Shown here piece by piece: positions 1,858 to 31,891 of a stretch of 32,000 bases of DNA. How positions within the stretch are numbered: position 1 is the first letter of the stretch; every line of letters starts with the position of its first letter. The stretch covers positions 3,720,001 through 3,752,000 of the forward strand of contig OY969938.1 of the NCBI GenBank assembly GCA_963704755.1. Direction: 5' to 3'. The position numbers and the translations under genes are program-made. Source of the stretch: an uncultured Chloroflexia bacterium (lineage in GTDB: Bacteria > Chloroflexota > Anaerolineae > Anaerolineales > Anaerolineaceae). Under the pieces are notes generated by a model. That model saw only the letters and a list, made by a program, of their open reading frames with translations, was not told the DNA's origin and ran no database searches.

Positions 1858-1906
1858 AGGGTGCTGTTGGGTTTCGCACGAAGCACGCGAAACCCAACAG
1901 CACCCT
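1858..1906. repeat. Hairpin palindrome: 20-bp perfect stem, 9-nt loop ACGAAGCAC
   Basis: AGGGTGCTGTTGGGTTTCGC (1858-1877) is the exact reverse complement of GCGAAACCCAACAGCACCCT (1887-1906); checked base by base. It lies between the yabE-like start and the tRNA-Phe 3' end. Confidence 0.9.
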
Positions 1907-1949
1907 GTCTTTCCAGGAAAGCTGAATAGTGACCAGATTAAAACATTGA

Positions 1950-1968
1950 CACCCCAACAAATGGGGTG
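1950..1968 (-). terminator. Candidate terminator hairpin downstream of tRNA-Phe
   Basis: On the minus strand, CACCCC-atttgtt-GGGGTG is followed by TCAATGTTTTAATC. The stem is only 6 bp and the T-run is displaced, so this is weak. Confidence 0.35.
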
Positions 1969-1987
1969 CCGGTTTGGAAGTTATGTG

Positions 1988-2060
1988 TGCCGAGAGCCAG
2001 AATCGGACTGGCGACACCGCAATTTTCAGTCGCGTGCTCTACCAACTGAGCTATCTCGGC
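1988..2060 (-). tRNA. tRNA-Phe (anticodon GAA), no encoded CCA
   Basis: The minus-strand sequence is GCCGAGATAGCTCAGTTGGTAGAGCACGCGACTGAAAATTGCGGTGTCGCCAGTCCGATTCTGGCTCTCGGCA. By hand it folds into a cloverleaf: 7-bp acceptor GCCGAGA/TCTCGGC, D arm GCTC/GAGC, and anticodon stem CGCGA/TTGCG with loop CTGAAAA. It also has variable loop GTGTC, T arm GCCAG/CTGGC and discriminator A. The overall layout resembles E. coli tRNA-Phe. Confidence 0.92.
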
Positions 2061-2078
2061 TTGAGTGTGCTGGGGCTG

Positions 2079-2107
2079 ATTTTAACCGTAAGGGGGTAAG
2101 ATGTCAA
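2079..2107 (-). promoter_or_regulatory. Sigma-70-type promoter for tRNA-Phe
   Basis: The minus strand reads TTGACA (2107-2102), a 17-nt spacer, then TAAAAT (2084-2079). The mature tRNA 5' end lies about 19 nt downstream of the -10. An A/T-rich tract (2111-2127) sits upstream of the -35. Confidence 0.7.
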
Positions 2108-2140
2108 GCAATTTTTGTTTTTATTGGCCTAACTTACCCT

Positions 2141-2169
2141 TTGACAAGCCCTCGAATTTATCCTATGAT
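2141..2169 (+). promoter_or_regulatory. Sigma-70-type promoter, back to back with the tRNA-Phe promoter
   Basis: TTGACA (2141-2146), a 17-nt spacer, then TATGAT (2164-2169). It shares the A/T-rich tract 2111-2127 with the divergent tRNA promoter. Confidence 0.65.
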
Positions 2170-2175
2170 TGTGTT

Positions 2176-2417
2176 ATTCCCGTGGGGTTGAGATTCGCGT
2201 AGGCCAGGCAGCCTACGGGGGGAATCGGTTTGCGGGGGAACGAAAGGATCACAGCCGGCCGACCACCGGTTTAGCATCATTTTGTTCGGGAGAATGTGGT
2301 TGAATGGTTGAGCTGCAGGATAAGTTCGAGCAACAATTGAGCACTCATGATCCGGTCTTCGAAAGCAGCGTCCTGCGCCTGAAGGTCCGGTATCCCTTGA
2401 ATATTTCAATCCATTAT
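2176..2417 (+). ncRNA. Candidate structured RNA or long 5' leader of unknown class
   Basis: This region starts about 7 nt after the consensus promoter and has no convincing ORF. Several helices fold by hand: ATTCCC (2176-2181) with GGGAAT (2220-2225), enclosing CGTAGGC (2198-2204) with GCCTACG (2211-2217). A long imperfect hairpin pairs GATCCGGTCTTC (2349-2360) with GAAGGTCCGGTATC (2381-2394). G-rich motifs ACGGGGGGAATC and GCGGGGGAAC are present. I could not assign a class by eye. Confidence 0.35.
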
Positions 2418-2447
2418 GAAAAAGCGCGCCCTTCGAAAGGGCGCGCT
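2418..2447 (-). terminator. Intrinsic terminator oriented for minus-strand transcripts
   Basis: The 9-bp GC-rich stem is AGCGCGCCC/GGGCGCGCT. On the minus strand it is followed by TTTTTCATAATGG. On the plus strand it is followed by AAACTCAC, with no U-tract. Confidence 0.55.
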
Positions 2448-2493
2448 AAACTCACAAATTCATTCACAGTCCAAATAGAGAGGGGAATATAAC

Positions 2494-2769
2494 ATGCTGC
2501 CCGGTCCCTACAACCTGCCGCCGGTACCACCCTTGCCGTTTTACATTCACCCGGCCGTTTTTTGGGGGTTGGTCTTGCTGGCCGCAATTCTGTTCGCGGT
2601 CGCCCTTTTACGGTTTATATTTTCTAGTTCTTCTGCGCGGGTGAATTCGTTTTTCGCCCTTTTTCTGGTGATCGTTTTTCTGGTGGTGGCTTACCTGGTG
2701 TTCATCAATGGGCCGACGATCTTACAGTTCTTCCACCGGCTGACCCAACAGATGTTCGTCCATCGCTAA
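2494..2769 (+). CDS. Small hypothetical membrane protein (two predicted TM helices)
   Basis: 91-aa ORF with an SD-like GAGAGGGGA 6-8 nt upstream of the ATG. It has two hydrophobic stretches (VFWGLVLLAAILFAVALLRFIF and FFALFLVIVFLVVAYLVFI). I recognise no homology. Its stop overlaps the convergent SWIM gene stop (CTAA). Confidence 0.5.
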   Translation: MLPGPYNLPPVPPLPFYIHPAVFWGLVLLAAILFAVALLRFIFSSSSARVNSFFALFLVIVFLVVAYLVFINGPTILQFFHRLTQQMFVHR

Positions 2770-3659
2770 TCCTCGTCTCCATTGGACGGGCCGGCCGCGT
2801 CGCCGAATGCCATCAACAGGGCAAACTGGCTGATGGCGTCATAGACCTCCTCCAACTGGTTCTTCAGGGTCAGTTCCCGGATGAAGTCGGGTTCGCCCAG
2901 GCGTTGGAGCAGGGGCAGCGGTAAGTTAGGCCCGTGGACCTGTACGGAAAAATCGGCGATCTCCGGGCCGGTCTGCCAGTAGTGGCCGATCTGGTCTTCC
3001 AGCCGGTAGCTTTCTTCGTGCGTATATGGCCGGCGGGCCAACTCTGGTGCGCCTTGGGCAGAGGTACCGGTTCGGCGCTGGCGTAAAGCCATCAGAATTT
3101 GTTCCTGGGTACGCCCGCGCATGCGGAAAAGCAGAAATGGGTCTTCGTCGAACCGCTCGCCCAGGATGTAATGGGTGGCCGCGACGTGTTTGCACGGGTT
3201 AGCCTTGTCCGGGCAAGTACATTCGGTGGTCAGGTCGTAGCTGGACTGGGGAAACAGGCTGACCCCCGCGGCGGCAAAGGCTTCCTCGATGTTGGCCGGC
3301 ATCTCACCTGCCAGCAGTTGGGCTGCAAAAATGGCCTGGTCGGAAAGCACGTCCAGCACCTTATTCCACTGGCGCTGGCTGAGCGGGGTCAGATGCATGG
3401 TTACCTTATACGGGCGTGAGCGTGAGCCTTGTACCAGGGCAGTGATGCCATCTTTGGTTTCCTCGATAGAGAGGACCTGGCCCTCGCGGGCGTAATACTG
3501 GCCACGCATCAGGCGCGGGCCGGAGACGAGCTGTTCCATCGCAGTGATCCAGCGGCGGGCCCACCAGTTGCGGCCAAAATCACCCCGCTCACTGCGGGCG
3601 CGGATACCCCCGGCCGGTTTTCTGGGGTTCATGCCCCACTCATTGCGTGATTCTGCCAT
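2766..3659 (-). CDS. SWIM zinc-finger protein, partner of the upstream SNF2 helicase
   Basis: 297-aa ORF carrying the SWIM CxCxnCxH signature in TECTCPDKANPCKHVAATHY. An AAGGAG SD lies 8 nt upstream of the ATG and overlaps the TAA stop of the SNF2 gene. The intergenic gap is 12 nt. Confidence 0.85.
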   Translation of the reverse strand: MAESRNEWGMNPRKPAGGIRARSERGDFGRNWWARRWITAMEQLVSGPRLMRGQYYAREGQVLSIEETKDGITALVQGSRSRPYKVTMHLTPLSQRQWNKVLDVLSDQAIFAAQLLAGEMPANIEEAFAAAGVSLFPQSSYDLTTECTCPDKANPCKHVAATHYILGERFDEDPFLLFRMRGRTQEQILMALRQRRTGTSAQGAPELARRPYTHEESYRLEDQIGHYWQTGPEIADFSVQVHGPNLPLPLLQRLGEPDFIRELTLKNQLEEVYDAISQFALLMAFGDAAGPSNGDED

Positions 3660-3671
3660 ATTGATTTCTCC

Positions 3672-6600
3672 TTACCTGCGCAGCGCCACCAGGTCCCGCA
3701 GCTCTTCGGTGCTGAGCTCGGTAATCCACTCTTCGCCGCCGCCGATCACCGACTGGACCAGCCCCTTCTTCAATTCGATCATCTCGTCGATCCGTTCTTC
3801 CAGGGTCCCGACGGTGACGAACTTGTGGACCTGGACGTTCTGGGTCTGGCCGATGCGGAAGGCGCGGTCAGTGGCCTGGTCTTCGACGGCCGGGTTCCAC
3901 CAGCGGTCGAAGTGGAAGACGTGGCTGGCTTTGGTCAGGTTTATACCGAGACCGCCGGCTTTGAGCGAAAGGATGAAAATAGGCGGCGCTGTGTCATCTT
4001 CCTGGAAGCGGCGCACCATTTGTTCGCGAGCAGTGATCGGGGTACCGCCGTGCAGGTAATACACCGGGCAGCCCAGCATATCCGGCAGGTAGGTACTGAG
4101 CAAGTGGCCCATCTCGGCGAACTGGGTAAATACCAGCGCTTTGTCGCCGGCGGAGAGTACTTCTTCCAGCATTTCTTCCAGGCGGGATAACTTTCCGCTG
4201 CGGCCATTGGTGTGGTTGCCCAGCGGCGATTTCTCGGCCGGTTCTTTCAGGTACTGGGCCGGGTGGTTGCAGACCTGCTTGAGGCGGGTCAACATGGTCA
4301 GGACCATACCGCGCCGGGCGATTCCATCGCTTTCGGCCACCTGTTTGAGCGAGTTTTGCACCACGGCTTCGTAAAGGGTGGCCTGCTCTTCGCTCAGGTA
4401 GCAGTACTCTTTCATTTCGATCTTTTCAGGCAGGTCCTGGATCACCCGCGGGTCGGTCTTAAGCCGGCGCAGGATGAAGGGGCTGACCATTTGTTTCAGG
4501 CGGGTGGTGGCTTCTTTGTCGCTGAAACGTTCGATCGGGATGCTGAATTCTCGGCGGAATTTTTCCAGGGGGCCCAGGTAGCCGGGGTTGAGGAACTGCA
4601 TGATCGACCACAACTCGCCCAGGCGGTTTTCGACCGGCGTGCCGGTGAGGGCAAAGCGGAAACCGGCTTTGAGCTTGCGGGCAGCCTGGGTCTGTTTGGC
4701 CCCGGGGTTCTTAATATTTTGGGCCTCGTCCAGGATCACGCCGTACCATTGGATGGACTGCATGGTTTCCTGGTCCATCCGCAGCAGCGCGTAGCTGGTC
4801 AAGACAAGGTCACATTCTTTAGTGGCTTTGACGAATTCCTCTTCGCGCAGACGACTGGGTCCCTGGTGAACCAGGGTGGTCAGCGTGGGTGCAAACTTGC
4901 CGGCTTCACGGTCCCAATTGGCTACCACCGAGGTGGGGCAGACCAAGAGCACCGGTCCGGGCAGCTTACCCAGCGATTCTTTTTCGTGTAGCAGAAGTGC
5001 CAGTGCCTGAATTGTCTTGCCCAGCCCCATGTCGTCGGCCAGGCAGGCGCCCATGCCCCAACTGCGGAAGAATGCCAGCCAGGAGTAACCCAGGCGCTGG
5101 TAGGGGCGCAGGGTGCCGTTCAGGCTGGAAGGCTGAGACATTTCGATCAAGCGGTGGTTGTCGGAAAGCTGGTCGAGCCAGTCGGCGACCCAGCCGTCCG
5201 CCTGGACTTCGTCCAGCGGCAGGCCGTGAGCGGATTGGCCTCCCAGGGCCAACTGGGCGGCTTCCAACAGGCCCATATCGCCGGAGTGTTCCTGCTCTTC
5301 CCAGAAACGGGAGGCGGCTTCGACCTGGTCGACATCGAGCTGGACCCACTGTCCGCGCACTTTGACCAGCGGCATCTTCAGCGAGGCCAGTTCCTCGAAT
5401 TCCTGGCGGGTGAGGGTCGTATCGCCCAGGGAAAGTTCCCATTCGAAGTGAACCAGGGTGCCCAGGCCGAGTTTGACGGCGTGTTTCAGGTCGTTTGGCT
5501 GATCGGCACGTGGGGTCAGGCGGATGCGCACACCCAGTCGAGCGCCGCGCTGGTTCCACCAATCGGGCACCAGGATGCCAAACCCGGCCTGCTCGAGCAG
5601 CGGCACGGCTTCGCGCAAGAAAGTGTAAGCCGATTGGGTATCCAGGTCCAGGCCGGTCGGGTGACGGGCCTGCAAACTGGTCAGAATGGGGGAAAACAGC
5701 CGGGCGGCATATCCCAGCCCGGCCAGGAGGGTATCCTGGGGCTGGATTAAACGGTTGTGAATGGCTAATAGCTCTTGCTTGGAGCGGAACCAGACCTCTT
5801 CGGCAGAAATGAGCAGGGTGGGATCACTGCGGGACTGTAACAGGTACTGCAATTCCCAGCGGCTGCCGTTGCCATTCTTTTCGTTGGGGTCCGGGGCGAT
5901 CAGGCGGAAAGCGATGCGGAAATTCTCGTCGCCCGCGGCGTGCAGGTTGCGCAGCCAGGCGCGCAGGCTGCTGTTGAGCGCCTGAAGCTGGCCGTTGGAG
6001 GCATTCACCCGGGCATCCGGGGTAAATAAAGCTGCCAGCCAGAAATCCAGGGTGTTATTCTTTTCAGGCAGCAGCAGGGGGGCCTTGCTGCGTCCCCAGG
6101 CGCGGGCCAGCAAATCGACCGTGCCTTTCAGGAAAGTATCCAGCAGCGAATGGGCAGTATGGCGCGATTGCTGGATGGTTTTGCCGACGTTGGTCTGGGT
6201 GCCCACTTCGGAGCGGCAAATGGCCGGCATGCTGCGTTCCAGCAAGGCCAGCCGGGGGCCATCCTGAGGCCCGTCCAGGACGGGCAGCCAACGGGCATAA
6301 TAGGTGTCGAGCTGGCCATCCGCCTGGGCCTGTACCATGGTGGGCAGCATCTTTTGTTCGGCCAGCACTTCCAGCACCAGGCCGCACACCAGTTGCCAGT
6401 AATGCGCGTCGGTGCCAAGGACGAAGCCGCTGGTCTTGCTTTCATTGGGCAGGTTGGCCAGGACCCCGTAAGCCTTGCCGGCCGGCAGCCATAATCCCCG
6501 CACCAACCAGGGAGCTAACCCGGGCGAGGAAAACTGGTCCAGTTCCCACTCCGGGTTCAACTCGGGGGAGGGCAGGGGAGAATTGCGTGTCGATGGCAGG

Positions 6601-6833
6601 CGCAGGCGGACAGCGCCAATCTGGGCGTCGTCTAGCGGTGTGCCGGCTCCGATTTGCAGCCGGATTGTATCCGGCTCCAGGCAATACGGATGGTCGCGAA
6701 GTTGTGTCTTTTTAGCTGCCATACCACGCCCACGTGGTTCCGGTTTACTTTCAGGACTTTCGGCCCAAAAAAGTATTCCGCCAGAATCCGACGTGCGCCG
6801 TGGCGGTTGCCAATGCGCATGCAATACCCACAT
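3672..6833 (-). CDS. SNF2/RAD54-family DEAD-like helicase with N-terminal SNF2-associated region
   Basis: 1053-aa ORF. Helicase motifs are present: I (LADDMGLGKT), II (DEAQNIKN), III (LTGTPVEN) and VI (QATDRAFRIGQ). The long N-terminal region includes an SNF2_assoc-like segment (LVHFEWELSLGDTTLTRQEFEELASLKMPLVKVRGQWVQLD). Confidence 0.9.
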   Translation of the reverse strand: MWVLHAHWQPPRRTSDSGGILFWAESPESKPEPRGRGMAAKKTQLRDHPYCLEPDTIRLQIGAGTPLDDAQIGAVRLRLPSTRNSPLPSPELNPEWELDQFSSPGLAPWLVRGLWLPAGKAYGVLANLPNESKTSGFVLGTDAHYWQLVCGLVLEVLAEQKMLPTMVQAQADGQLDTYYARWLPVLDGPQDGPRLALLERSMPAICRSEVGTQTNVGKTIQQSRHTAHSLLDTFLKGTVDLLARAWGRSKAPLLLPEKNNTLDFWLAALFTPDARVNASNGQLQALNSSLRAWLRNLHAAGDENFRIAFRLIAPDPNEKNGNGSRWELQYLLQSRSDPTLLISAEEVWFRSKQELLAIHNRLIQPQDTLLAGLGYAARLFSPILTSLQARHPTGLDLDTQSAYTFLREAVPLLEQAGFGILVPDWWNQRGARLGVRIRLTPRADQPNDLKHAVKLGLGTLVHFEWELSLGDTTLTRQEFEELASLKMPLVKVRGQWVQLDVDQVEAASRFWEEQEHSGDMGLLEAAQLALGGQSAHGLPLDEVQADGWVADWLDQLSDNHRLIEMSQPSSLNGTLRPYQRLGYSWLAFFRSWGMGACLADDMGLGKTIQALALLLHEKESLGKLPGPVLLVCPTSVVANWDREAGKFAPTLTTLVHQGPSRLREEEFVKATKECDLVLTSYALLRMDQETMQSIQWYGVILDEAQNIKNPGAKQTQAARKLKAGFRFALTGTPVENRLGELWSIMQFLNPGYLGPLEKFRREFSIPIERFSDKEATTRLKQMVSPFILRRLKTDPRVIQDLPEKIEMKEYCYLSEEQATLYEAVVQNSLKQVAESDGIARRGMVLTMLTRLKQVCNHPAQYLKEPAEKSPLGNHTNGRSGKLSRLEEMLEEVLSAGDKALVFTQFAEMGHLLSTYLPDMLGCPVYYLHGGTPITAREQMVRRFQEDDTAPPIFILSLKAGGLGINLTKASHVFHFDRWWNPAVEDQATDRAFRIGQTQNVQVHKFVTVGTLEERIDEMIELKKGLVQSVIGGGEEWITELSTEELRDLVALRR

Positions 6834-7265: not shown

Positions 7266-7316
7266 GGGTGTTTATGGTTTTTCGTGTGCGAAGCACACGA
7301 AAAACCATAAACACCC
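7266..7316. repeat. Hairpin palindrome: 24-bp perfect stem, GAA triloop, apex GCGAAGC
   Basis: GGGTGTTTATGGTTTTTCGTGTGC, then GAA, then GCACACGAAAAACCATAAACACCC. The arms are exact reverse complements; checked base by base. Confidence 0.95.
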
Positions 7317-7431: not shown

Positions 7432-9942
<2,511 letters not shown>

Positions 9943-11843: not shown

Positions 11844-12238
11844 TTGCTTGAATTGCCCGGCAATGCCGGCGCTTTCATCAGCCGGCCGTCCAGCAGGTGC
11901 AGGAGGGTCAACCCTGGGTGGCGCAAGAGCAGGCGCGGGCCGGCATAGCGCATCACCTGGCGGACCTGGCTTCGCATAGCCGGTTTGTAGCAATGCACTG
12001 TGCAGTTCGCGCAGGTCGGCTTGGCTTGCTGGAAGGGGCAATGTTCGATGCGCTGGAGGGCGTACCGGTAGAGCGCATCACAATTCGGGCATAACGCGTC
12101 CTCAGCAGGATGGTGGTCATGGCAATATAAGCGGATAAGCTGGAAGATGGTGGCCTTTTCGCGGGCGATCCGTTTGGTTTTATCCAGGTGGAACAAAGTC
12201 AACGCGCTTACTCTTCCAGCAAATAGGCCATGATCCAC
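11837..12238 (-). CDS. YgbA_NO family protein (nitrous-oxide-stimulated promoter family), Cys-rich
   Basis: 133-aa ORF. The motif pattern LYCHDHH...LCPNCDALYRYALQRIEHCPF...KPTCANCTVHCYKP.MR..VR.VMRYAGPRLLLRHP matches my recollection of PF11756. The listed start overlaps the upstream gene by 31 nt, and an internal TTG (about 12199) may be the true start. Confidence 0.7.
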   Translation of the reverse strand: MDHGLFAGRVSALTLFHLDKTKRIAREKATIFQLIRLYCHDHHPAEDALCPNCDALYRYALQRIEHCPFQQAKPTCANCTVHCYKPAMRSQVRQVMRYAGPRLLLRHPGLTLLHLLDGRLMKAPALPGNSSKN

Positions 12239-13260
12239 TGGGTGGTCGACACCAGGGCATCCAGGTGAGTGCGCTCATAGTTGTGAGAGGCATCCACACC
12301 CGGGCCGATCAGCGCGACTGCCAGGTCGGCGCCGCTGCGCAGCAGGGCCGTGCCGTCGGAGCCGTAATAGGGATAAATATCTACCTGGTAGGGAATAGCA
12401 TATTTTTCGGCCAGGCGGCGCATTCGGTTGCTCAGGTTGTGATCGTAAGGGCCGCCCGAGTCTTTGACGCACAGGGTGGTATGGAATTCGTCGGAGGCCT
12501 GGCCCTCGCCTACAGCGGCCATGTCGACCACGACCAGCTCGCCGACCTCGGCCGGGAAACCGGTGGCGGCGCCGTGGCCAACTTCCTCGTAATTGCTGAT
12601 CAAGGCGTAGGCGGTCTGGCGCGGTTTTCGGCCGGCCTGGTGCAGGGCCTGCAAAGCCGCCACAACGCAGGCGACACAGGCTTTGTCGTCCAGGTGACGC
12701 GAGCGGACAAAGCCGTTGGTTACTTCCACGCGCGGGTCAAAGGCGATGAAATCGCCCACGCGGATGCCCAGGGACTCGGTCTCGGCCGGGCTGGTGGTGC
12801 GCTCGTCCAGGCGAATTTCCAGGGTTTCTTCGTTACGCGGGGTGCTGCTCAGTTTTTCGCCGTAAACGTGGGTGGATGCCACCTCGATCAAGGCGCTCCC
12901 GCGGATGCGTTTGCCGGACTGGGTAAAGACGGTCACGCCCTCGCCTTCGATGGCGTTCCAGGGCAGCCCGCCGATTTGGGTCATTTTTAACCGGCCGTTC
13001 GGCTTGATCTCCTTGACCATGGCGCCCAGGGTATCGACGTGAGCGGTTAACGAGCGGGGTTTATCGTTGCGTTCGCCTTCTACGCGGGCCATCAAGGCGC
13101 CTTTGCGAGTTTGGGTCAGGGTGATGCCGGGGATTTTGCGGAAGGCTTCGCCGGTAAATTCAATGGCTTTACCGGTAAAACCAGTTGGGCTGGGTGTATT
13201 GAGCAAATCGGTCAGAAAGAGGGTTAATGCGTTGGTGTCGATTACGGGGAGTGAATTCAT
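12208..13260 (-). CDS. M42 family metallo-aminopeptidase (FrvX/YpdE/PepA-like)
   Basis: 350-aa ORF. Its length and motifs are typical of M42 peptidases: TAHVDTLG, RHLDDKACVA, NYEEVGHGAA and VVDMAAVG. Confidence 0.8.
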   Translation of the reverse strand: MNSLPVIDTNALTLFLTDLLNTPSPTGFTGKAIEFTGEAFRKIPGITLTQTRKGALMARVEGERNDKPRSLTAHVDTLGAMVKEIKPNGRLKMTQIGGLPWNAIEGEGVTVFTQSGKRIRGSALIEVASTHVYGEKLSSTPRNEETLEIRLDERTTSPAETESLGIRVGDFIAFDPRVEVTNGFVRSRHLDDKACVACVVAALQALHQAGRKPRQTAYALISNYEEVGHGAATGFPAEVGELVVVDMAAVGEGQASDEFHTTLCVKDSGGPYDHNLSNRMRRLAEKYAIPYQVDIYPYYGSDGTALLRSGADLAVALIGPGVDASHNYERTHLDALVSTTQWIMAYLLEE

Positions 13261-14591: not shown

Positions 14592-14608
14592 TTCGACTGG
14601 AAATCAAC

Positions 14609-14641
14609 CCTGGGTTTTGGCTCGAAGAGCCAGGACCCAGG
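14609..14641. repeat. Hairpin: 15-bp stem with two G:T positions, GAA triloop
   Basis: CCTGGGTTTTGGCTC, then GAA, then GAGCCAGGACCCAGG. It lies between the convergent 3' ends of ORF 14334-14591 and surE. Confidence 0.75.
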
Positions 14642-14737
14642 ATATATCTTTTAACAACCCGGGCAAGTAATGGAATTAGCGAGCCTTTGATATTTTTCAC
14701 ACGCGAAGCCTGCGAAAACGCTTTGGAGATCGCGGGA

Positions 14738-15864: not shown

Positions 15865-15920
15865 CCCCGAATTAAAAGTGTTTGTGGGGACGAAGTCCCC
15901 ACAAACACTTTAATTCGGGG
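15865..15920. repeat. Hairpin palindrome: 26-bp stem with one bulged A, GAA triloop
   Basis: CCCCGAATTAAAAGTGTTTGTGGGGAC, then GAA, then GTCCCCACAAACACTTTAATTCGGGG. Confidence 0.9.
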
Positions 15921-15939: not shown

Positions 15940-15976
15940 AGGTGTTTTTGTGAAGCAGCGCTTCACAAAAACACCT
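15940..15976. repeat. Hairpin palindrome: 17-bp perfect stem, AGC loop
   Basis: AGGTGTTTTTGTGAAGC, then AGC, then GCTTCACAAAAACACCT. It ends 8 nt from the stop of the DUF3048 gene. Confidence 0.9.
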
Positions 15977-19503: not shown

Positions 19504-19555
19504 GGTGCTATTTTTATTATTTTGCATGCATAGCTTGCAAAATAATAAAAACACC
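19504..19555. repeat. Hairpin: 16-bp perfect AT-rich stem plus 4 outer bp with a 3-nt bulge, 9-nt loop
   Basis: TTTTTATTATTTTGCA (19511-19526) pairs with TGCAAAATAATAAAAA (19536-19551). The outer pairs are GGTG/CACC. Confidence 0.8.
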
Positions 19556-19656
19556 TTGTTCTTCTGCGATGGCTGAGTATTTAGACTTGAATTTATTGTA
19601 ATTGATTTTCGCCGCGATGCCAGAGTGAGCTTTTTGACGGGTGCACTCAAAGTTCG

Positions 19657-19705
19657 TTATGAGGAGTTTGGGAACGGGCGTAGCCCGGTCCCAAACTCCT
19701 CATAA
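19657..19705. repeat. Hairpin palindrome: 22 of 23 bp paired, GTA triloop (apex GCGTAGC)
   Basis: TTATGAGGAGTTTGGGAACGGGC, then GTA, then GCCCGGTCCCAAACTCCTCATAA. There is one A/G mismatch. Confidence 0.88.
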
Positions 19706-19736
19706 TTAATTACTTTTTAGTGCTCCTTTTTTTGGC

Positions 19737-21123: not shown

Positions 21124-21178
21124 CCCAAATTTGAGGTATTTGCGAGGGCGAAGCCCTCGCAAATACCTCAAATTTGGG
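21124..21178. repeat. Hairpin palindrome: 26-bp perfect stem, GAA triloop, apex GCGAAGC
   Basis: CCCAAATTTGAGGTATTTGCGAGGGC, then GAA, then GCCCTCGCAAATACCTCAAATTTGGG. Exact; checked base by base. It lies between divergent gene starts. Confidence 0.95.
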
Positions 21179-23251: not shown

Positions 23252-25798
23252 TTAGCTGCGCAATTTGGCTCCCAGCACCTGGTCCAGGCGACGGACGATC
23301 TTCTGGCGGATCTGGGTGGCCTCCTGAGTGGAGAGGGTGTGATCGCTGGCCTGGTATGTCAGGCTGTAGGCCAGGCTCTTTTTCCCGGCGCCGATCTGCT
23401 CGCCGCGGAAAATGTCGAACAGGCGCACGGCCGTCAGCGCCCGCCCGCCGGCCTGGCGGATGATCGCTTCCACGTCCGCGGCCGGGAGGGTTTCGGGAAC
23501 CACCACGGCGATATCTTCCAGGGTGGGCGGGAAGGTCGGCACCGCGCTGGTCTCGTAACGCCGGGCGGACAGGGCCTGGATGGCGGCCAGGTCGAACTCA
23601 CCGGCCAGGACAGGTGGGTTGAGAAAGCTGTAGCTCTCCTTGACCTGGGGGTGCAGCTCGCCGAAATAGCCCAGGGTGACTTCGCCAACACTGACCCGCG
23701 CGCATTTGCCCGGATGGAAGGCCGGGTGGTCGCCCGGGGTAAAAGTCGCATCCGGAATGTGGACGACTTGCAGCAGCTCCTCGACAATGCCCTTGAGATC
23801 GAAGTAATCCAGGGACGCGCTCTGGGAGGTATCCCAGGCCGGCGGCCGGCGCAGGCCGGTCACGGCCATGGCCACGAATTGGCGTTCTTCCGGTAAAGGT
23901 TCACCCTGGCGGGGCCAGAAGACCGGACCGATCTCGAACAGGGCCAGGCGATCGCGCAGGCGGACGTTCTTTTCGAGCAGGTCCAGGACAGAAGCCAGCA
24001 GGCTGCGGCGCATGGCCGCCCGCTCGGGGGTCAGCGGGTTTTTGATCCAGATGTATTCCCGCGCCGGAGCCTCGCCGGCGGCCGCATCCAGGCGCGCTTC
24101 GCGTTCGGGTGTGGTCAGGCGGTAATTGACCACTTCCTGCAAACCCAGGCGGACCAATACATCGCGCACGCGGTTTTCGGTATCCAGCACGGGGTTGCTG
24201 TGCACCTGAGGCAGTTCGTCGGGCATACGCCGGGCAGGGATCTTCGCATAGCCGTAAATCCGGGCGACTTCCTCCAACAGGTCGGCCTTGCCGACCACGC
24301 CCTCGCCGATGTCCAGGCGATGCGGCGGAGTCTTGGCCAACACTGTGTCACCTTCCACCCGGCAGGTGAATTCCAGGCGGGTGAGAATGGCAGCGATTTC
24401 GGCAGCGCTCAATTCGATGCCCAGGAGGCGGCGGACATCCGCCGGGGTCAATTCCACTTCGGGATCCTGCTGGGGTAGTGGATATTCATCCACCAGGCCG
24501 GTATAGACCTGGCCGCCGCTCCATTCGGCCATGCGGCTGAGGCACATCTGCACCCCTTCCACCGCCAGGGCCGGGTGGACGCCGCGCGAGAAACGGTAGC
24601 CTGCCTCGGAGGCCAGGTGCTGGGTGAGGGTGGTGCGGCGCACGTTGATGAAATTCCAGCTTGCGCCTTCCAGCAGGACGTTGGTGGTGGTGTCGCTGAC
24701 CTCGGATTCCTGCCCGCCCATGACGCCGGCCAGGGAAAGCGGCCCGGCGGTATCGCAGACCAGGATGGTGGTATCGTCTAGCGTACGTTCAACGTCGTCC
24801 AGGGTGGTCAGCTTTTCGCCGGGTTCGGCGGTGCGGGTGATGATGGTGGGCGGGTTGCCGCCCGCACGGCGCACAAGCACGTCGTAATCGAAGGCGTGCA
24901 GGGGCTCGCCGATCTCGAGCATGACGTAATTGGTGGCGTCCACAATGGCGTTGATCGGGCGCATACCGGCCAGGCGCAGGCGGCGCTGCACCCAGTAGGG
25001 GCTGGGGCGTTTCTGCGCGCCGGAGATCAAGCCGAGCACGAAACGCGGGTTCAGTTTGGGGTCCCCGATGCGGATACCGGCTTTGCCGTCGATAGAAGGC
25101 CCACCCTGAGGCAGGTGCGGCTGGGGGCGGTGCAGGGGCTTGCCGGTCAGGGCAGCCAACTCGCGGGCGACTCCCAGGATGGAGGCGTCGCGAATCATAT
25201 TGGGCAGGATGGCGACCTCGAAGACGGCGTCGCCCATGTATTCAGAAAGCGGCATGCCGGTGGGGGCGTCCGCGTCCAGGAGGATGATGCCTTCGTGCTC
25301 TTCGGAGACGCCCAGTTCCTTTTCCGAGCAGACCATGGAAAAGGATTCGACTCCGCGGATCTTGGTACGCTTGAGGGTGGTCAGCACCTGGCCGGGTTGG
25401 TGACCGTCGTACAGGCGGGCGCCTTCGCGGGCGTAGGCCACTTTGATCGGCTGCTGAAGCGGGCCGATGCCCCGGTATTCGAGCAGGTTAGGCGCCCCGG
25501 TCAGCACGGTGATCTCGCCGGTGCCGTCCTGCAGGCGGCAAAGCACCAGCCGGTCGGCGTTGGGGTGCGGGCTGACCTCGTCGATCTGGGCCACGACGAA
25601 TTTATCCGGGTCCCAGCTCAGGCCGCTCACCTTGAACTCGTGCGGCTGATTGGGGTCAAACCCGGCGTAGGGGTCGGGCAAACCGACCAGGCGGATTTCT
25701 TCTACCTCCAGCCCGGCCATGGTCAGCATACTGGCCAGGTCGAGCAGGGGCAGGTCAATGTCGATGTAATCTTTTAACCAGGAAAGGGGAAGGTCCAT
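23252..25798 (-). CDS. pheT: Phenylalanine--tRNA ligase beta subunit
   Basis: 848-aa ORF with a typical PheT N-terminus (MDLPLSWLKDYIDI). The tRNA-binding, B3/4, B5 and C-terminal FDX-ACB-like regions are recognisable by eye. A GGAG SD is present, and pheS lies upstream. Confidence 0.93.
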   Translation of the reverse strand: MDLPLSWLKDYIDIDLPLLDLASMLTMAGLEVEEIRLVGLPDPYAGFDPNQPHEFKVSGLSWDPDKFVVAQIDEVSPHPNADRLVLCRLQDGTGEITVLTGAPNLLEYRGIGPLQQPIKVAYAREGARLYDGHQPGQVLTTLKRTKIRGVESFSMVCSEKELGVSEEHEGIILLDADAPTGMPLSEYMGDAVFEVAILPNMIRDASILGVARELAALTGKPLHRPQPHLPQGGPSIDGKAGIRIGDPKLNPRFVLGLISGAQKRPSPYWVQRRLRLAGMRPINAIVDATNYVMLEIGEPLHAFDYDVLVRRAGGNPPTIITRTAEPGEKLTTLDDVERTLDDTTILVCDTAGPLSLAGVMGGQESEVSDTTTNVLLEGASWNFINVRRTTLTQHLASEAGYRFSRGVHPALAVEGVQMCLSRMAEWSGGQVYTGLVDEYPLPQQDPEVELTPADVRRLLGIELSAAEIAAILTRLEFTCRVEGDTVLAKTPPHRLDIGEGVVGKADLLEEVARIYGYAKIPARRMPDELPQVHSNPVLDTENRVRDVLVRLGLQEVVNYRLTTPEREARLDAAAGEAPAREYIWIKNPLTPERAAMRRSLLASVLDLLEKNVRLRDRLALFEIGPVFWPRQGEPLPEERQFVAMAVTGLRRPPAWDTSQSASLDYFDLKGIVEELLQVVHIPDATFTPGDHPAFHPGKCARVSVGEVTLGYFGELHPQVKESYSFLNPPVLAGEFDLAAIQALSARRYETSAVPTFPPTLEDIAVVVPETLPAADVEAIIRQAGGRALTAVRLFDIFRGEQIGAGKKSLAYSLTYQASDHTLSTQEATQIRQKIVRRLDQVLGAKLRS

Positions 25799-26370: not shown

Positions 26371-27414
26371 TCAGAACTGTTCCAAAAACCGCACATCGTT
26401 GCCCCAGAAGTAGCGGATGTCTTCGATGTGGTATTTCAGCATGGCGATGCGTTCGGGACCCAGGCCGGCGGCGAAGCCGGAGAACTGGGTGGGGTCGTAG
26501 CCGCCGTTTTGCAGCACGATGGGATGGACCATCCCGCAGCCGCCGATCTCCAGCCAGCCGGAGCCTTTGCAGACCGTGCAGCCCTTACCGCCGCAGATGA
26601 AGCACTCCATATCCACCTCGGCGCTCGGTTCGGTGAAGGGGAAGTAGGACGGGCGGAAGCGGGTGCGCACCTGGTCGCCGAACAGGCGCCGGGCAACGCC
26701 CTCGATGACGCCTTTCAGATCACCCAGGGTGATGTTGCGGCCCACGGCCAACAGCTCAACCTGGTTGAACTGCATCTCGTGGCTGGCGTTGGTCTGCTCG
26801 TAGCGGTATACCATCCCCGGCAGGATCACCCGCACCGGGTTGGGCGCATAGGCGCGCATGGCATGGATCTGGCCGGGCGAGGTATGCGTGCGCAGGATCG
26901 TGCCCGGCACGGTGGTGTGCAGGGTGTCCCACATGTCGCGGGCCGGGTGATGGGCCGGGATGTTGAGCAGCTCGAAATTGATCTCCTCGGTCTCGACTTC
27001 CGGCGAGCGGTAGATTTGAAAGCCCATCTCGACGAAGGCCTGGCAAATTTCGTTGAGGGCCTGGGTGGCCGGGTGCATCCGGCCCAATGGCAGCGGTCGG
27101 CCCGGCAGGGTCACATCCAGGCGCTCGTTAGCCAGTTTGCGCTGCAGCAAATCGGCCCGCAGAATTTTCTCGCGCCCCGCCAGGGCAGCTTCCAGGGCCA
27201 GCTTGACCTGGTTGGCGCTTTGGCCGACCTGCTGGCGCTGTTCCTTGGGGATCTGGCCCATGCGCGAGAAGACCTGCATGACCGGGGCGCTGCGTCCCAG
27301 GTAGCTGCTGCGCCAGGCTTGCAGCGCATCCTCGTCCTGGACGGCTTGCAGCGCCTCCAGGCCGGCAGCCTGGAGCTGCTCCAGTTCGGAAAGTACGTTG
27401 ATATCTTCAGTCAT
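26371..27414 (-). CDS. pheS: Phenylalanine--tRNA ligase alpha subunit
   Basis: Class II aaRS motifs are present (HPARDMWDT, FRPSYFPFTEPSAEVD, GCGMVHP). The ORF track extends to 27513, through the T-box terminator. ATG 27414 has a GGAGGAAGGA SD immediately upstream. Confidence 0.93.
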   Translation of the reverse strand: MTEDINVLSELEQLQAAGLEALQAVQDEDALQAWRSSYLGRSAPVMQVFSRMGQIPKEQRQQVGQSANQVKLALEAALAGREKILRADLLQRKLANERLDVTLPGRPLPLGRMHPATQALNEICQAFVEMGFQIYRSPEVETEEINFELLNIPAHHPARDMWDTLHTTVPGTILRTHTSPGQIHAMRAYAPNPVRVILPGMVYRYEQTNASHEMQFNQVELLAVGRNITLGDLKGVIEGVARRLFGDQVRTRFRPSYFPFTEPSAEVDMECFICGGKGCTVCKGSGWLEIGGCGMVHPIVLQNGGYDPTQFSGFAAGLGPERIAMLKYHIEDIRYFWGNDVRFLEQF

Positions 27415-27725
27415 TCCTTCCTCCAAAAATAAAAAATCCCGTCCCCACACAAAGGGACGGGACAATTCCCGCGGTACCACCCTGCTTGGCTGCCGAAAGG
27501 GCAGCCCACTCAATCCAACGGCCGGTGAAGGCGATTGGTAGGCCGGTTAACGCTGGCCACGCAACTCGGACTACTGGCCTGTACAGGCATTCCCCCGAGC
27601 GGCTCGAGAGGGAACTTCAACCGGTGTCCATCGTGCGGGGGTCTCAGTCTGTGCCCCCGGCTTCCCTGGCGGTTTCAGCCGGCTTACTTTCCTCCGTCAT
27701 TGCCTTTAAAGCATATGCAGATGCC
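27415..27725 (-). promoter_or_regulatory. T-box riboswitch leader with a Phe (UUC) specifier, controlling pheST
   Basis: On the minus strand the T-box sequence is AGGGTGGTACCGCGGGAA (about 27482-27466). It is followed by the terminator GTCCCGTCCC-tttgtgt-GGGGACGGGA-TTTTTTATTTT (27463-27425). The stem I region contains GGAGGAAAGTAAG, and the specifier-loop-like context is GAAG-UUC-C (UUC at 27614-27612). An F-box-like CGTTA is present. Confidence 0.85.
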
Positions 27726-27728
27726 TCT

Positions 27729-28247: not shown

Positions 28248-28306
28248 GGGTGTTTTTTGGATGTTTTCTGCGTGCTTTGCACGCAGAAAACATCCAAAAA
28301 ACACCC
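28248..28306. repeat. Hairpin palindrome: 28-bp perfect stem, TTT loop
   Basis: GGGTGTTTTTTGGATGTTTTCTGCGTGC, then TTT, then GCACGCAGAAAACATCCAAAAAACACCC. Exact; checked base by base. It ends 69 nt upstream of the lipoprotein ATG. Confidence 0.95.
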
Positions 28307-28374: not shown

Positions 28375-29583
28375 ATGCGAAAAGCATTATTTATCCCGGC
28401 CTGCCTTATGATATTAGTATCGACGGCTTGCGTCCTCCCAGCCCCTGCACCGTCGGTAACTCCCACGCCGACCGCCCTGGTCATCCCGACTACGGTAGTT
28501 CCACCGACTGCAACCGTCCCCGCGGTGATCACCTCGACGCCTGAGCCGGTTACCCCGACCCCGGTTTTACCCACCTTTACTGCCACAATCATCCCCCAGG
28601 CGACCAACACAGCGGCCGTTGCCACCAGCACCCCAGTGCCCGCGGGTAGCCTGACCCCATTGGACGTGGATGCCTCCAAATACATCGATGATCGCAGCGG
28701 TGTTTCGATTTTAGCGTCGCTGTTCAATGCGGTTAACCGCAAAGAGTACCTGCGGGCGTATTCGTACTGGAGCGCGGACAGCAATGTGGTCCAGACCCAC
28801 ACTTACGCTCAGTTCGCCGCCGGTTACGCCCAGACCCAGTCGGTGCAGGCCCAGATTGGCCCGATCACCGGTGACGCCGGCGCGGGCAACTTCTACTTCA
28901 ACGTCCCGGTGGCCCTGACCGCCACGACGACCACTAACACCACCCAGTATTTTGTGGGCTGCTACACCCTGCACCAGGTCAACCCGGGCAATTTCGGCGG
29001 GAACAATTTTGTCCCGATCCAGATTCAAAAAGGGAATGTCTTGATCGCCAACAGCCCCTCAGATTTTCCCTCGATGATTGCGAATGTTTGCTCCAGCCAG
29101 AGCGGCAGCGGTGTTTCACCCACGACCACGCCGGCTCCGGATGATATCAGCAGCGGTCGTTTTCTGGATGACCGCAGCGATGGCATCCAGGTGGTGCGTT
29201 CGTTCTACAACGCCATCAACCGGCACGAATACTCGCGAGCCTATTACTACTGGGAACCGGCCGCCGCGACCACAAACCTGCCGCCTTTCGACCAGTTCCA
29301 GCAGGGGTACCAGACCACCCAATCGGTCGATTTGACCGTGGGCACCATGACCAGCGACGCGGGCGCCGGGCAGTTGTATTATTCTGTGCCGGTGACCCTG
29401 GTCTCGCACCTGGATAATAACCAGACCGCGACCTACGTGGGCTGTTACGTGATGCACCTGGCCCAGCCGGCCATCCAGGCCACCCCGCCGTTCCAGCCGA
29501 TGGGTATCCGCAGCGCGAAAATCCAGCAGGTGGATAATGGCAGCGATACCAGTGCTCTTATGAACACCATCTGCCAGCAGTAG
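28375..29583 (+). CDS. Lipoprotein with Pro/Thr-rich linker and two tandem copies of an uncharacterised ~130-aa domain
   Basis: 402-aa ORF with a signal peptide and lipobox (LMILVSTAC) and a GGAGAA SD. The internal duplication shows as YIDDRSGVSILASLFNAVNRKEYLRAYSYW / FLDDRSDGIQVVRSFYNAINRHEYSRAYYYW, GYAQTQSV..DAGAGNFYFNVPVAL / GYQTTQSV..DAGAGQLYYSVPVTL, and YFVGCYTLH / TYVGCYVMH. Confidence 0.85.
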   Translation: MRKALFIPACLMILVSTACVLPAPAPSVTPTPTALVIPTTVVPPTATVPAVITSTPEPVTPTPVLPTFTATIIPQATNTAAVATSTPVPAGSLTPLDVDASKYIDDRSGVSILASLFNAVNRKEYLRAYSYWSADSNVVQTHTYAQFAAGYAQTQSVQAQIGPITGDAGAGNFYFNVPVALTATTTTNTTQYFVGCYTLHQVNPGNFGGNNFVPIQIQKGNVLIANSPSDFPSMIANVCSSQSGSGVSPTTTPAPDDISSGRFLDDRSDGIQVVRSFYNAINRHEYSRAYYYWEPAAATTNLPPFDQFQQGYQTTQSVDLTVGTMTSDAGAGQLYYSVPVTLVSHLDNNQTATYVGCYVMHLAQPAIQATPPFQPMGIRSAKIQQVDNGSDTSALMNTICQQ

Positions 29584-29598
29584 AACCTGTTTTTTATG

Positions 29599-29644
29599 AA
29601 ATTGGTGTGTTTGTGGTGGCAAAGCCCCGCAAACACACCAATTT
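29599..29644 (+). terminator. Intrinsic terminator of the lipoprotein gene (long hairpin plus T-run)
   Basis: AAATTGGTGTGTTTG (29599-29613) pairs with CAAACACACCAATTT (29630-29644). The inner stem is GGC-AAA-GCC. The run of 7 T at 29642-29648 continues past the stem. The stop of the convergent FmdB-like gene (29647) abuts it. Confidence 0.75.
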
Positions 29645-29646
29645 TT

Positions 29647-30048
29647 TTAATCCAAATCCCCGGCCAGGTCGCCGCCTGCAGCGCCGCCGTCATCGGCCAG
29701 GTCTGGCAGATCACGTTCGATGTCTTCCGGCGATTGGCCCAATTCGAGCCGCCCAACCACTTCGTCGAACTCCGGGCCCATATCCTCACCGATTTCGCCG
29801 CTCATCTGGCGCATCATTTTGCCCAGGGCCTGCGGGTCATCATCCAGTCCGGCTAATTTAGAAGGGTCCGCCAGTGCTTCCATGCGGCTATCATCCGAAC
29901 GGGCAACGCGGACTCGCCCAATTTTGCGCTGGACGTTCTGGCTGCCACAATGTGTGCAGGTAACCGGTTTTACGCCGTAGTCGGAATATGACATGAAAAC
30001 CTCGAAACGCTTGTGACAATCCTGGCAGCGATATTCATAAGATGGCAT
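29647..30048 (-). CDS. FmdB-family zinc-ribbon protein
   Basis: The N-terminus MPSYEYRCQDCHKRFEVFMSYSDYGVKPVTCTHCGSQNVQRKIGRV carries the CxxC...CxxC FmdB signature, and the C-terminal tail is acidic. A GGAG SD lies 9 nt upstream. Confidence 0.85.
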   Translation of the reverse strand: MPSYEYRCQDCHKRFEVFMSYSDYGVKPVTCTHCGSQNVQRKIGRVRVARSDDSRMEALADPSKLAGLDDDPQALGKMMRQMSGEIGEDMGPEFDEVVGRLELGQSPEDIERDLPDLADDGGAAGGDLAGDLD

Positions 30049-30397
30049 ACGAACTACTCCAAAAAATGGGGGTAACGCAAGGTTCTGCTTGCGGGGAAAA
30101 TCAAGATCGCTTTACCCGGCTAACCGGGTAGGTTTGATCGGCGGTCGGTTGCAATGGCCACAGACCGCAAGGAACGCAGCTTTCGCCAGGACATTCCTTT
30201 TCTTTAGAATGCTCTTGGAACTTCTTGGACAGGCCTAAGGAGTTCCTATTTATCTATTATAATCAGGGTACCATAAGAATCCTGTAAGTTCACGCGAGAG
30301 AACCAACGCCTTTACAGCCGCACCATTGATCGATGGGCTCTCCAGGTAGCGGAAATCAATCAGCGAGGGTAACCGGCCCAGACAGGATTCAGGCCTC

Positions 30398-31054
30398 ATG
30401 AAAATTATGGACAGCAGGTTCAATGCCTTCATGGAAGATTCCATATCCTTCGATTTCAGCAACCCTTATCCTCTTTTAATTGTGGTTTCTGGTCCTTCCG
30501 GGGTGGGGAAAAACTCTGTCATTCAAGCTTTAAAGAAGCGGAAATTACCGCTGCATGTGGTGGTCACCACCACCAACCGCAAACCCCGCCCGAATGAAGT
30601 CAATGGTGTGGATTATTATTTCGTCAGCACCGAACGGTTCGAAGAAATGATCCGCACGGATGAACTGATCGAGCACGCTGTGGTGTACGGCGACTATAAA
30701 GGGATCCCCAAGGCGCAGATCCGTGAAGCCTTTGCCACCGGCCGGGATGTGATTTTACGGGTGGACGTGCAAGGCGCAGCCCGCCTGCGCGATCTCTACC
30801 CTGAATCGGTTTTGATTTTCCTGATGCCGGCCAATATGGAAGAATGGATCCAGCGTTTACAGGATCGCAAGAGCGAAACCTCCAAATCTTTGCACCGCCG
30901 GGTAGAAACCGCCCGCCGGGAGATGGAACACTTGCAGGAATTCGACTATGTCGTGGTCAACGCCAACTGCCTGTTGGAAGAGGCCGTGGACAATATTGTT
31001 TCGATTATCGATGTGGAACATCTGCGGGTTAAGCCGCGAAAAATAAATATATGA
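30398..31054 (+). CDS. gmk: Guanylate kinase
   Basis: A P-loop (VVSGPSGVGKNSV) is followed by TTRKPRPNEVNGVDYYFVS-type and GDYKG motifs. The exact start is uncertain; in-frame ATGs occur at 30398, 30407 and 30431. Confidence 0.85.
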   Translation: MKIMDSRFNAFMEDSISFDFSNPYPLLIVVSGPSGVGKNSVIQALKKRKLPLHVVVTTTNRKPRPNEVNGVDYYFVSTERFEEMIRTDELIEHAVVYGDYKGIPKAQIREAFATGRDVILRVDVQGAARLRDLYPESVLIFLMPANMEEWIQRLQDRKSETSKSLHRRVETARREMEHLQEFDYVVVNANCLLEEAVDNIVSIIDVEHLRVKPRKINI

Positions 31055-31827
31055 CAATTTCTCATTACACCCAGGGCCCGTCTTCGTATAACCCAACGCC
31101 CCCACCTCCCCCGCGACGGAGCGTCCAACGACCGCCATCTTACCAGCCTTACGTGACCTACATTATGATCGCGTCCTGCGTGCTGGTCTATATCGGCCAG
31201 ATGCTCACGCCGGTAGCGGGCACCGGTGGCCTGGACTTGTTTTCTTTATTTGGCGCGAAGATCAATTCGCTGATCATCCAGGGACAATACTGGCGCTTGC
31301 TGACCCCCATGTGGCTGCACGGCTCCATTTTGCACATTGCATTCAACATGTACGCGCTGTATATTTTCGGGGTCAACCTGGAACGCTATTACGGTCATTG
31401 GCGCTTTTTGTGGCTGTATCTGCTCAGCGGTTACGCGGGCAACGTAGTCTCTTTCTTGATGTCTCCCTCGGTTTCGCTGGGCTCTTCGACGGCTATCTTT
31501 GGCCTGATCGCGGCCCAGGGCGTCTTTCTTTATAAAAACCGCCAGTTGATCCGCAACGCACGCGGGATGCTGCTCAATACCGTTGCCATCGCGGCCATCA
31601 ACCTGGTACTGGGGCTGTCGCCGGGTATCGATAACTGGGGGCACCTGGGAGGCTTGCTGGGCGGGTTGGCCTATGCCTGGTCGGCCGGTCCGGTCTGGCT
31701 GCTGCAGAACGACGCCAGCGGCGTCCGGCTGATTAATCAGCGCAGCCGCCAGCGGGTCATCCTGGTTGCCGTTGGTGTGTTTGTGTTGTTCACGATCATC
31801 GCCGCGTTCAAGATTTTCACTGCCTGA
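31051..31827 (+). CDS. Rhomboid-family intramembrane serine protease
   Basis: The rhomboid signatures WRLLTPMWLHGSILHIAFNM (HxxxN), GSSTAIFG (GxSxxxxG catalytic Ser) and WGHLGG (catalytic His) are present. Its ATG overlaps the gmk stop (ATGA). Confidence 0.88.
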   Translation: MTISHYTQGPSSYNPTPPPPPRRSVQRPPSYQPYVTYIMIASCVLVYIGQMLTPVAGTGGLDLFSLFGAKINSLIIQGQYWRLLTPMWLHGSILHIAFNMYALYIFGVNLERYYGHWRFLWLYLLSGYAGNVVSFLMSPSVSLGSSTAIFGLIAAQGVFLYKNRQLIRNARGMLLNTVAIAAINLVLGLSPGIDNWGHLGGLLGGLAYAWSAGPVWLLQNDASGVRLINQRSRQRVILVAVGVFVLFTIIAAFKIFTA

Positions 31828-31842
31828 TTTAAAAAATATATA

Positions 31843-31891
31843 AAAGGGTATTGTTTTTTGGGTGCGAAGCACCAAAAAAACAATACCCTTT
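31843..31891. repeat. Hairpin palindrome: 22 of 23 bp paired, GAA triloop, apex GCGAAGC
   Basis: AAAGGGTATTGTTTTTTGGGTGC, then GAA, then GCACCAAAAAAACAATACCCTTT. It starts 16 nt after the rhomboid stop. Confidence 0.9.

Follow-up and report, generated by a model that had tools for sequence, protein, structure and literature searches.

Tips of long chromosomal palindromes in an uncultured Chloroflexia bacterium are polarised by replication strand

The DNA analysed here, called the window, is a stretch of 32,000 nt from an uncultured Chloroflexia bacterium (positions 3,720,001-3,752,000 of the single 4.87-Mb contig OY969938.1, 54.8% G+C), located in a replichore in which the + strand is the leading strand. 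It contains seven long palindromes whose tips are formed by a three-nucleotide GNA loop closed by C:G, and this report concerns the orientation of such loops, GNA or its complement TNC, which follows the replication fork throughout the chromosome. The initial annotation of the window had listed the seven apexes as reading GNA on the + strand, and each was recovered with a long inverted repeat centred on it (Table 1). The arms are 24-26 bp long and perfect or near-perfect in the palindromes at 7266, 15866, and 21124, and the remaining four contain a mismatch or bulge, either close to the apex or in the stem. The seven stems belong to different sequence families, so the seven are not copies of one insertion event, a case that the annotation had itself considered. 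Four further palindromes absent from that list, with TTT, AGC, and ATA tips and a 6-nt loop, were found in the window; none of them reads TNC, and the count of seven GNA to zero TNC therefore stands. The TTT tip is a single C-to-T change away from TTC, and the AGC tip belongs to a decayed class described below.

Genes in the window were called with a simple codon-usage gene finder. The palindromes at 7266, 15866, and 19655 are each flanked by two minus-strand genes, that at 14600 lies between convergent genes, those at 1858 and 21124 lie between divergent genes, and that at 31840 is downstream of a plus-strand gene.

Table 1. Palindromes and genes referred to in the text. Positions are those of the window, except for the RAYT and TnpA genes, which are given in contig positions.
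Feature	Position	Strand	Tip or remark
Long palindrome, 20-bp arms, imperfect apex	1858-1906	+	C-GAA-G tip at 1879-1883, reads GAA on +
Family A palindrome, perfect 24-bp arms (arm GGGTGTTT...)	7266-7316	+	GCGAAGC apex at 7288-7294
Imperfect palindrome	14600-14650	+	C-GAA-G tip at 14623-14627
Family B palindrome (arm CCCGAATT...)	15866-15920	+	C-GAA-G tip at 15891-15895
Imperfect palindrome	19655-19707	+	GCGTAGC apex at 19678-19684
Family B palindrome, perfect 26-bp arms	21124-21178	+	GCGAAGC apex at 21148-21154
Family A-like palindrome, one bulge	31840-31895	+	GCGAAGC apex at 31864-31870
Palindrome, perfect 17-bp arms	15940-15976	+	AGC tip (leading-strand sequence)
Palindrome, 20-bp arms, 6-nt loop	18223-18268		Outside the triloop statistics
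AT-rich palindrome, 19-bp arms	19511-19551	+	ATA tip
Family A palindrome, perfect 28-bp arms	28248-28306	+	TTT tip (leading-strand sequence)
SNF2-type helicase, SCO1167/sll1366 family	3672-6833	-	
ClpB/ClpA-like AAA+ chaperone	7432-9942	-	
M42 peptidase, NAGGN-system type	12208-13260	-	
pheT	23252-25798	-	
pheS	26371-27513	-	
Four solo RAYT genes	~3014262, 4212718, 2916253, 3445593		151-200 bits against NF047646 (cut-off 80)
IS200-type TnpA	1010107		

The replichores were defined from the cumulative GC skew, which was negative from ~0.27 to 2.6 Mb and positive elsewhere, the curve peaking near 0.275 Mb (275,000) and having its minimum, a flat one, at 2.58-2.78 Mb. The sole DnaA-box cluster of the genome, defined as four or more TT[AT]TCCACA sequences within 300 bp, is located on the skew minimum at 2,614,585-2,614,874, and the origin and terminus were taken as ~2.615 Mb and ~0.275 Mb, respectively. 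The dnaA gene (1708574-1709872) was rejected as an origin marker, as its position at 1.709 Mb is far from either skew switch; it lies 0.9 Mb from the DnaA-box cluster, so that the origin does not adjoin dnaA in this genome. Gene-strand bias was weak (33-65% per 200 kb), and replication could therefore be separated from transcription.

Two sets of hairpins were compiled from the whole genome: a perfect set of 393 with stems of 12 bp or more (most 19-28 bp) and a 3-nt loop, and a wider set of 556 with up to 2 mismatches in 16. On the + strand alone the loops were balanced (GAA 95 vs TTC 100), because the two replichores cancel. When the replichores were separated, GNA:TNC was 98:34 where the + strand is leading and 36:93 where the - strand is leading (Fisher 4.3e-14), and GNA stood on the leading-strand sequence in 191 of 261 perfect hairpins. 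The ratio of GAA to TTC on the leading strand was 183:59 in the wider set. This polarity, ~75% genome-wide, was kept when only one hairpin per 5 kb was counted (145:54) and among unique 16-nt stems (184:60), was present in families A (146:54), B (22:10), and D (13:3) and in the unclassified hairpins (56:17), and was uniform with distance from origin to terminus. Hairpins with 4-nt loops, at 7:6, were too few for a test. The cumulative curve of loop orientation was lowest at 2,596,255 and highest at 290,524, coinciding with the DnaA-box cluster and the GC-skew maximum; the loops alone place the origin and terminus to within 20 kb.

A switch between GNA and TNC across the origin and terminus had been predicted from the seven loops of the window, and the tabulation of loops by replichore proposed for checking it gave exactly this result, neither a 50:50 split nor a dependence on gene direction. 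The suggestion that GNA lies on the lagging-strand template, which has the leading-strand sequence, was likewise borne out. The seven of seven had also been taken as non-random, and the genome-wide pattern is indeed strongly non-random, but seven of seven is itself an ordinary draw from it (0.75^7 = 0.13).

Loops closed by C:G were tallied as read on the leading strand. The four GNA loops all exceeded their complements (GAA 175 vs TTC 51, GTA 24 vs TAC 14, GGA 16 vs TCC 5, and GCA 8 vs TGC 3). TTT and AAA were found 43 and 39 times, respectively, and other odd loops were polar as well (ATC 17 vs GAT 1, ATT 12 vs AAT 0, TTA 10 vs TAA 1, GTC 6 vs GAC 0, AAC 11 vs GTT 3, AGC 5 vs GCT 0, and TCT 5 vs AGA 0). 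The stems that carry the odd loops are ordinary ones of families A and B and lie in both replichores, and each strongly polar odd loop differs by a single step from GNA or AAA as read on the lagging-strand sequence. A rule of loop T-richness was rejected, as AAC and AGC contradict it, whereas descent from opposite-strand GNA fits all cases. Partial template-switch chimeras were rejected as the source of ATC and ATT, as chimeras yield only {T,G}{T,A}{C,A}.

Each loop was assigned to a lineage by placing it in the orientation nearest to GAA. The GNA strand was the leading-strand sequence in 291 loops, hereafter the favoured orientation, and the lagging-strand sequence in 221, the opposite orientation (57:43). 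Intact loops made up 63% of the favoured but 27% of the opposite class. Changes at position 3 numbered 2 in the favoured vs 29 in the opposite orientation (18 of the latter A to T), transversions at position 1 numbered 2 vs 19, G1 to A was found 40 vs 49 times, and position 2 was changed in 54 vs 25 loops. Decay in the opposite orientation consisted chiefly of A3 to T, G1 to T, and G1 to A. The pattern R-N-A, in which a sheared purine:A pair is kept and N2 is free, is found only where the GNA strand is the lagging-strand template; ~260 such tips are present on the leading-strand sequence, at a spacing of roughly 19 kb. The 3:1 polarity of the intact tips is mostly differential survival upon the milder 57:43 lineage bias. 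The decayed tips were themselves polar by ~72:7 (10:1), that is, not randomised by inversion, and the stems were alike in length and perfection in both tip orientations.

A change of the 5' closing C to T (T-GAA-G, T-TTC-G) was found in 14 hairpins on the leading-strand sequence vs 5 on the other (~2.8-fold), an excess that fits greater single-strandedness and deamination of the lagging-strand template. Nearest-neighbour DNA folding was tried for ranking the loops and was abandoned, giving the same -11.6 kcal/mol for the ten triloops tested; according to the review of Kimoto and Hirao, such folding cannot rank the stabilities of these loops.

The hairpins of both sets, perfect (393) and near-perfect (556), are high-copy extragenic palindromes, in which families A, B, and D are recognisable. 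These palindromes are repeats resembling repetitive extragenic palindromes (REP) or miniature inverted-repeat transposable elements, strand-symmetric except for the C-GNA-G triloop. Copies within a family diverge from one another, yet each remains a perfect palindrome. In all families the 5' arm is rich in G+T and the 3' arm in A+C (e.g. 7266-7289 and 28248-28275 in the window): the G+T content of the 5' arm averaged 0.67, exceeded 0.5 in 83% of hairpins, and was below 0.35 in only 3.6%. As a palindrome reads alike on both strands, this richness is intrinsic to it.

About 160 hairpins share similar asymmetric flanks, which allowed the loop to be compared with its carrier. In the largest group, of 97 copies, the frame is an outer imperfect inverted repeat (GTAACTGCTCAG ... 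CTGAGTAGTTAC) with unequal linkers and interchangeable inner palindromes. The outer repeat of this composite (e.g. at ~1409940 and 3829631 of the contig) has a G:T wobble on one strand and GTAG in one arm. A composite repeat enclosing different inner perfect palindromes looks like a nested or modular element. The orientation of the frame was mildly polarised by replication (59:38), and the loop was oriented at random relative to the flanks (42:41). Relative to the leading strand, the loops were polar in either flank orientation (32:18 in one and 23:10 in the other). The closest pairs of flanks had the same loop orientation in 22 cases and different orientations in 18. Considering that the loop is random against its flanks even in these closest pairs, the tip must frequently be reset in place.

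Template switching between the arms of an inverted repeat inverts the spacer (PMC8604942) and keeps the arms identical (PMC8604942, PMC5941160). The sequences are consistent with frequent inversion of the tip of the kind that arm-to-arm template switching would produce. Like the products of quasipalindrome template switching, the hairpins have arms that are identical within a copy yet divergent between copies and a spacer that stands either way round relative to the flanks, and the process is strand-biased in Escherichia coli (PMC7202029, PMC8604942, PMC5941160). Quasipalindrome switching differs in that it is known from reporter genes and scattered evolutionary events; our literature search found no description of an equilibrium across a genome with one loop orientation prevailing on one replication strand and with one-sided decay of the loop.

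The reading that we favour, and to which we give roughly even credence, is that the polarity may be an equilibrium of biased tip inversion and one-sided decay and not a designed signal. The d(C-GNA-G) mini-hairpin would be tolerated on the discontinuously copied lagging-strand template, whereas on the leading-strand template it would be an obstacle that stalls synthesis. Such a stall could be resolved by a switch to the sister arm, which would invert the tip into the favoured orientation. Alternatively, erroneous bypass might insert A opposite A3 or G1, giving precisely the A-to-T and G-to-T changes that are seen and that arm-to-arm switching is unable to template, or selection might favour variants that destroy the sheared G:A pair, and selection against stalling would act in the same way. 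Once the sheared pair is lost, the tip would neither stall nor invert and would be frozen, and frozen tips of this kind would explain the 10:1 polarity of the decayed class.

Several premises of this scheme have precedents. Perfect palindromes fold into hairpins on the leading- as well as the lagging-strand template in E. coli (PMC4245961), template switching at quasipalindromes shows a strand bias, being stronger with leading-strand reporters (PMC7202029, citing Rosche 1997, Yoshiyama 2001, and Seier 2011), and d(GCGAAGC) is exceptionally stable and nuclease-resistant (PMC13037366). Genes for SbcD and PriA are present in the genome, and a hairpin nuclease or restart priming may be among the players. 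Some points weigh against inversion with decay as the explanation. The dominant A3-to-T change cannot be templated by an arm-to-arm switch and needs either selection or A-rule misinsertion where the leading-strand polymerase stalls. That G1 and A3 hardly vary in the favoured orientation (2 and 2 changes, respectively, among 291) is left unexplained by the model alone; it looks like constraint and favours a functional role. Hairpins are classically expected mainly on the lagging-strand template, and avoidance there predicts the opposite polarity. The pattern in other genomes, described below, is only suggestive.

A functional role would make the tip a signal in single-stranded DNA (ssDNA), either an entry site resistant to SSB for primase, primosome, or restart proteins or a site for RAYT-type (REP-associated tyrosine transposase) or other hairpin-binding proteins. 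Purifying selection would then keep G1 and A3, and flipped copies would be non-functional and drifting. The restriction of the favoured orientation to R-N-A, with N2 free, G1 changed to A alone, and A3 changed in only 2 of 291 loops, is the classic signature of structural constraint on the sheared purine:A pair, and this account is possible, though in our judgement it falls well short of likely. Mini-hairpins of the C-GNA-G or GCGAAGC type, active as one folded strand, are found in ssDNA initiation signals such as the complementary-strand origin of phage G4, ssiA of RSF1010, and the early promoters of N4 (PMC13037366); these are, however, single phage or plasmid sites with demonstrated priming or promoter activity, whereas the present copies number hundreds on a chromosome and share with them only the motif and its strand specificity. 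PriA and four RAYT genes could supply partners, but any protein partner would be hypothetical, and selection would have to work at each of some 260 dispersed sites. Congeners lack these repeats, so any function would be dispensable. Decay in the opposite orientation is dominated by A-to-T transversions and not by the transitions that drift would give, and the ~72:7 ratio of decayed tips means that inversion must here too depend on an intact GNA. The narrower proposal that the palindromes, at about one per 19 kb, are selected lagging-strand-template signals recruiting a priming, restart, or hairpin-binding protein seems to us rather unlikely. The initial annotation had raised a hairpin role of this sort (priming, or a nuclease or recombinase target) as a possibility; the data are accounted for no less well by a mutational asymmetry that is linked to replication and non-adaptive.

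The polarity might instead be a trace of how the elements arise. A Y1/HUH enzyme, of the RAYT or IS200-like type, would cut the inner hairpin and paste it into the lagging-strand template, so that new copies would be born with GNA on that template and opposite copies would be old, immobile, decaying fossils. Four RAYT genes and one IS200-type TnpA were found (Table 1); TnpB was searched for in the genome and was not found. Enzymes of the IS200/IS605 and RAYT types work on ssDNA hairpins of the lagging-strand template (PMC6006769; for RAYT also PMC3116915), the 291:221 split of the lineages is a mild bias such as oriented birth would leave, and the outer frame, which has GTAG, is mildly polarised and encloses different inner palindromes. 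We nevertheless consider such an origin of the tip polarity quite unlikely. As the tip is random relative to the frame, in the closest copies as well, it must have been reset after insertion or independently of it. Mutational fossils should be common in the favoured orientation and are nearly absent, and the equal stem length and perfection in the two orientations also weigh against it. Only one of the four RAYT genes, that at 4.2127 Mb, has a neighbouring palindrome (family A, ~140 nt downstream); the other three have none within ~500 nt, and no REPtron, a RAYT gene flanked by its cognate REPs, was found.

The resemblance to REP/REPIN-RAYT systems includes high-copy extragenic palindrome families, four RAYT genes in the genome, and an outer inverted repeat with GTAG. 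This motif was found in the 5' flank of 17 of the 556 hairpins and, as part of the outer arm CTGAGTAGTTAC, in the 3' flank of 87. The differences are that the arms here are perfect over 20-30 bp, compared with ~10-15 bp and imperfect in REP, that the inner hairpin lacks a conserved GT[AG]G at its 5' foot, and that only the 3-nt tip is polarised, uncoupled from the orientation of the element. No report of replichore polarity of REP tips was found in our literature search. The insertion sequences of the IS200/IS605 family (IS608, ISDra2) share a fork-related orientation, with the hairpin-bearing strand processed on the lagging-strand template; in them, however, the whole element including the transposase gene is oriented, whereas here the flanks are only weakly so and the tip is independent of them.

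An origin at the RNA level, with the hairpins serving as terminators or RNA stability elements whose tip follows the sense of the transcript, is highly improbable. The hairpins are mostly intergenic (9 of 393 inside called genes), convergent-gene spacers hold 27% of them compared with 18% of all intergenic spacers, and a T-rich tract is present on at least one side in 169 of 556, which speaks for such an origin; yet 21% lie between divergent genes and 387 of 556 (70%) have no T-rich tract. More directly, GNA was on the leading strand irrespective of gene context (co-directional 41:16, head-on 55:17, convergent 46:21, and divergent 43:15), a result unchanged with only high-confidence genes within 400 nt. 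Read in the mRNA sense, the tip at tandem genes is thus mainly GNA for genes co-directional with the fork but UNC for head-on ones, and most hairpins here differ from intrinsic (rho-independent) terminators both in lacking the T-rich tract and in a tip polarity that ignores transcript sense. The independence from transcription claimed at the outset, from window genes on both strands, therefore holds genome-wide.

Chance, base-composition skew, tandem or duplicated copies, and assembly artefact together deserve almost no credence, since the leading strand does carry a GC skew of +0.036 but mononucleotide skew predicts a ratio of only 1.02 vs the ~3.1 observed, free CGAAG outside hairpins is unpolarised (6507 of 13020, or 50.0%, on the leading strand), the bias persists in the de-clustered and unique-stem counts, and an assembler is blind to replichores while the switch points match the origin and terminus. 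Free GCGAAGC outside hairpins was on the leading strand in 460 of 882 cases (52%), and C-GNA-G on short stems of 1-6 bp in 48-58%. Local inversions were considered as a source of the exceptions and rejected, as the exceptions do not lie in locally inverted skew.

These counts show that the polarity arises at the DNA level, is tied to fork direction, is set in place, and centres on the two bases that form the GNA mini-hairpin. The replication fork thus treats the two strands of the palindromes differently, most likely when these fold into single-stranded hairpins. Chi, KOPS, and architecture-imparting sequences are free oligomers, recognised in duplex DNA by RecBCD or FtsK. The loops share with motifs of this type a strand preference of ~75% that flips at the origin and terminus and can be used to locate both, and differ in that free GCGAAGC is unpolarised and only copies at the tips of long palindromes are polarised. 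REP/REPIN-RAYT systems, replication-oriented IS200/IS605 elements, strand-biased quasipalindrome correction, and replichore-polarised oligomers are all known already. Our literature search found no report of a palindrome apical loop polarised by replichore independently of its carrier element and none of one-sided decay of a GNA triloop.

In same-genus relatives almost none of these repeats were found with either the apex pattern or the covariance model, and the family A apex pattern, with 64 matches in this genome, had at most three in any of 30 relatives. There are no orthologous copies by which changes could be polarised. The covariance model of the palindromes was searched in 250 Anaerolineae genomes and recovered similar palindromes with GNA tips in some of them; most matches were in fragmented assemblies, G210 and G248 having large contigs, and fork direction was approximated by local GC skew, taken over as much as 20 kb surrounding each hairpin. 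GNA was on the G-rich strand by 21:9 in G072 (13:3 where the skew was at least 0.01), 11:2 in G210, 5:4 in G248, 5:7 in G103, which has very short contigs, and 1:3 in G076. The five genomes combined gave 43:25, which is suggestive of polarity elsewhere. In G072 (Anaerolineae, 66% G+C; loci L023-L042), a GT-rich hairpin with a GAA tip was regularly paired with a CT-rich hairpin 44 nt away, and the strand preference was seen only in the GT-rich member of this doublet (21:9 vs 7:7).

An odd loop is the sole strand difference of a perfect palindrome, and a loop that depends on the replichore is therefore a clean natural read-out of the effects of the fork arm on hairpins. At hundreds of independent sites, the tip is polarised by the fork, uncoupled from transcription and carrier, kept on one template, and eroded on the other. 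This provides evolutionary evidence at genome scale for a strand-specific formation and importance of short DNA hairpins in vivo, and the best reading is that the d(C-GNA-G) mini-hairpin has a DNA-level, replication-strand-specific fate for which damage avoidance and function are both possible. Loop polarity can also serve as a marker for locating the origin and terminus. Whether hairpin trouble occurs on the leading- or the lagging-strand template, and whether d(GCGAAGC)-type mini-hairpins are used or avoided, become testable questions. If the signal reading were true, a bacterial chromosome would carry dispersed, replication-strand-specific DNA structural signals built from mobile palindromes.

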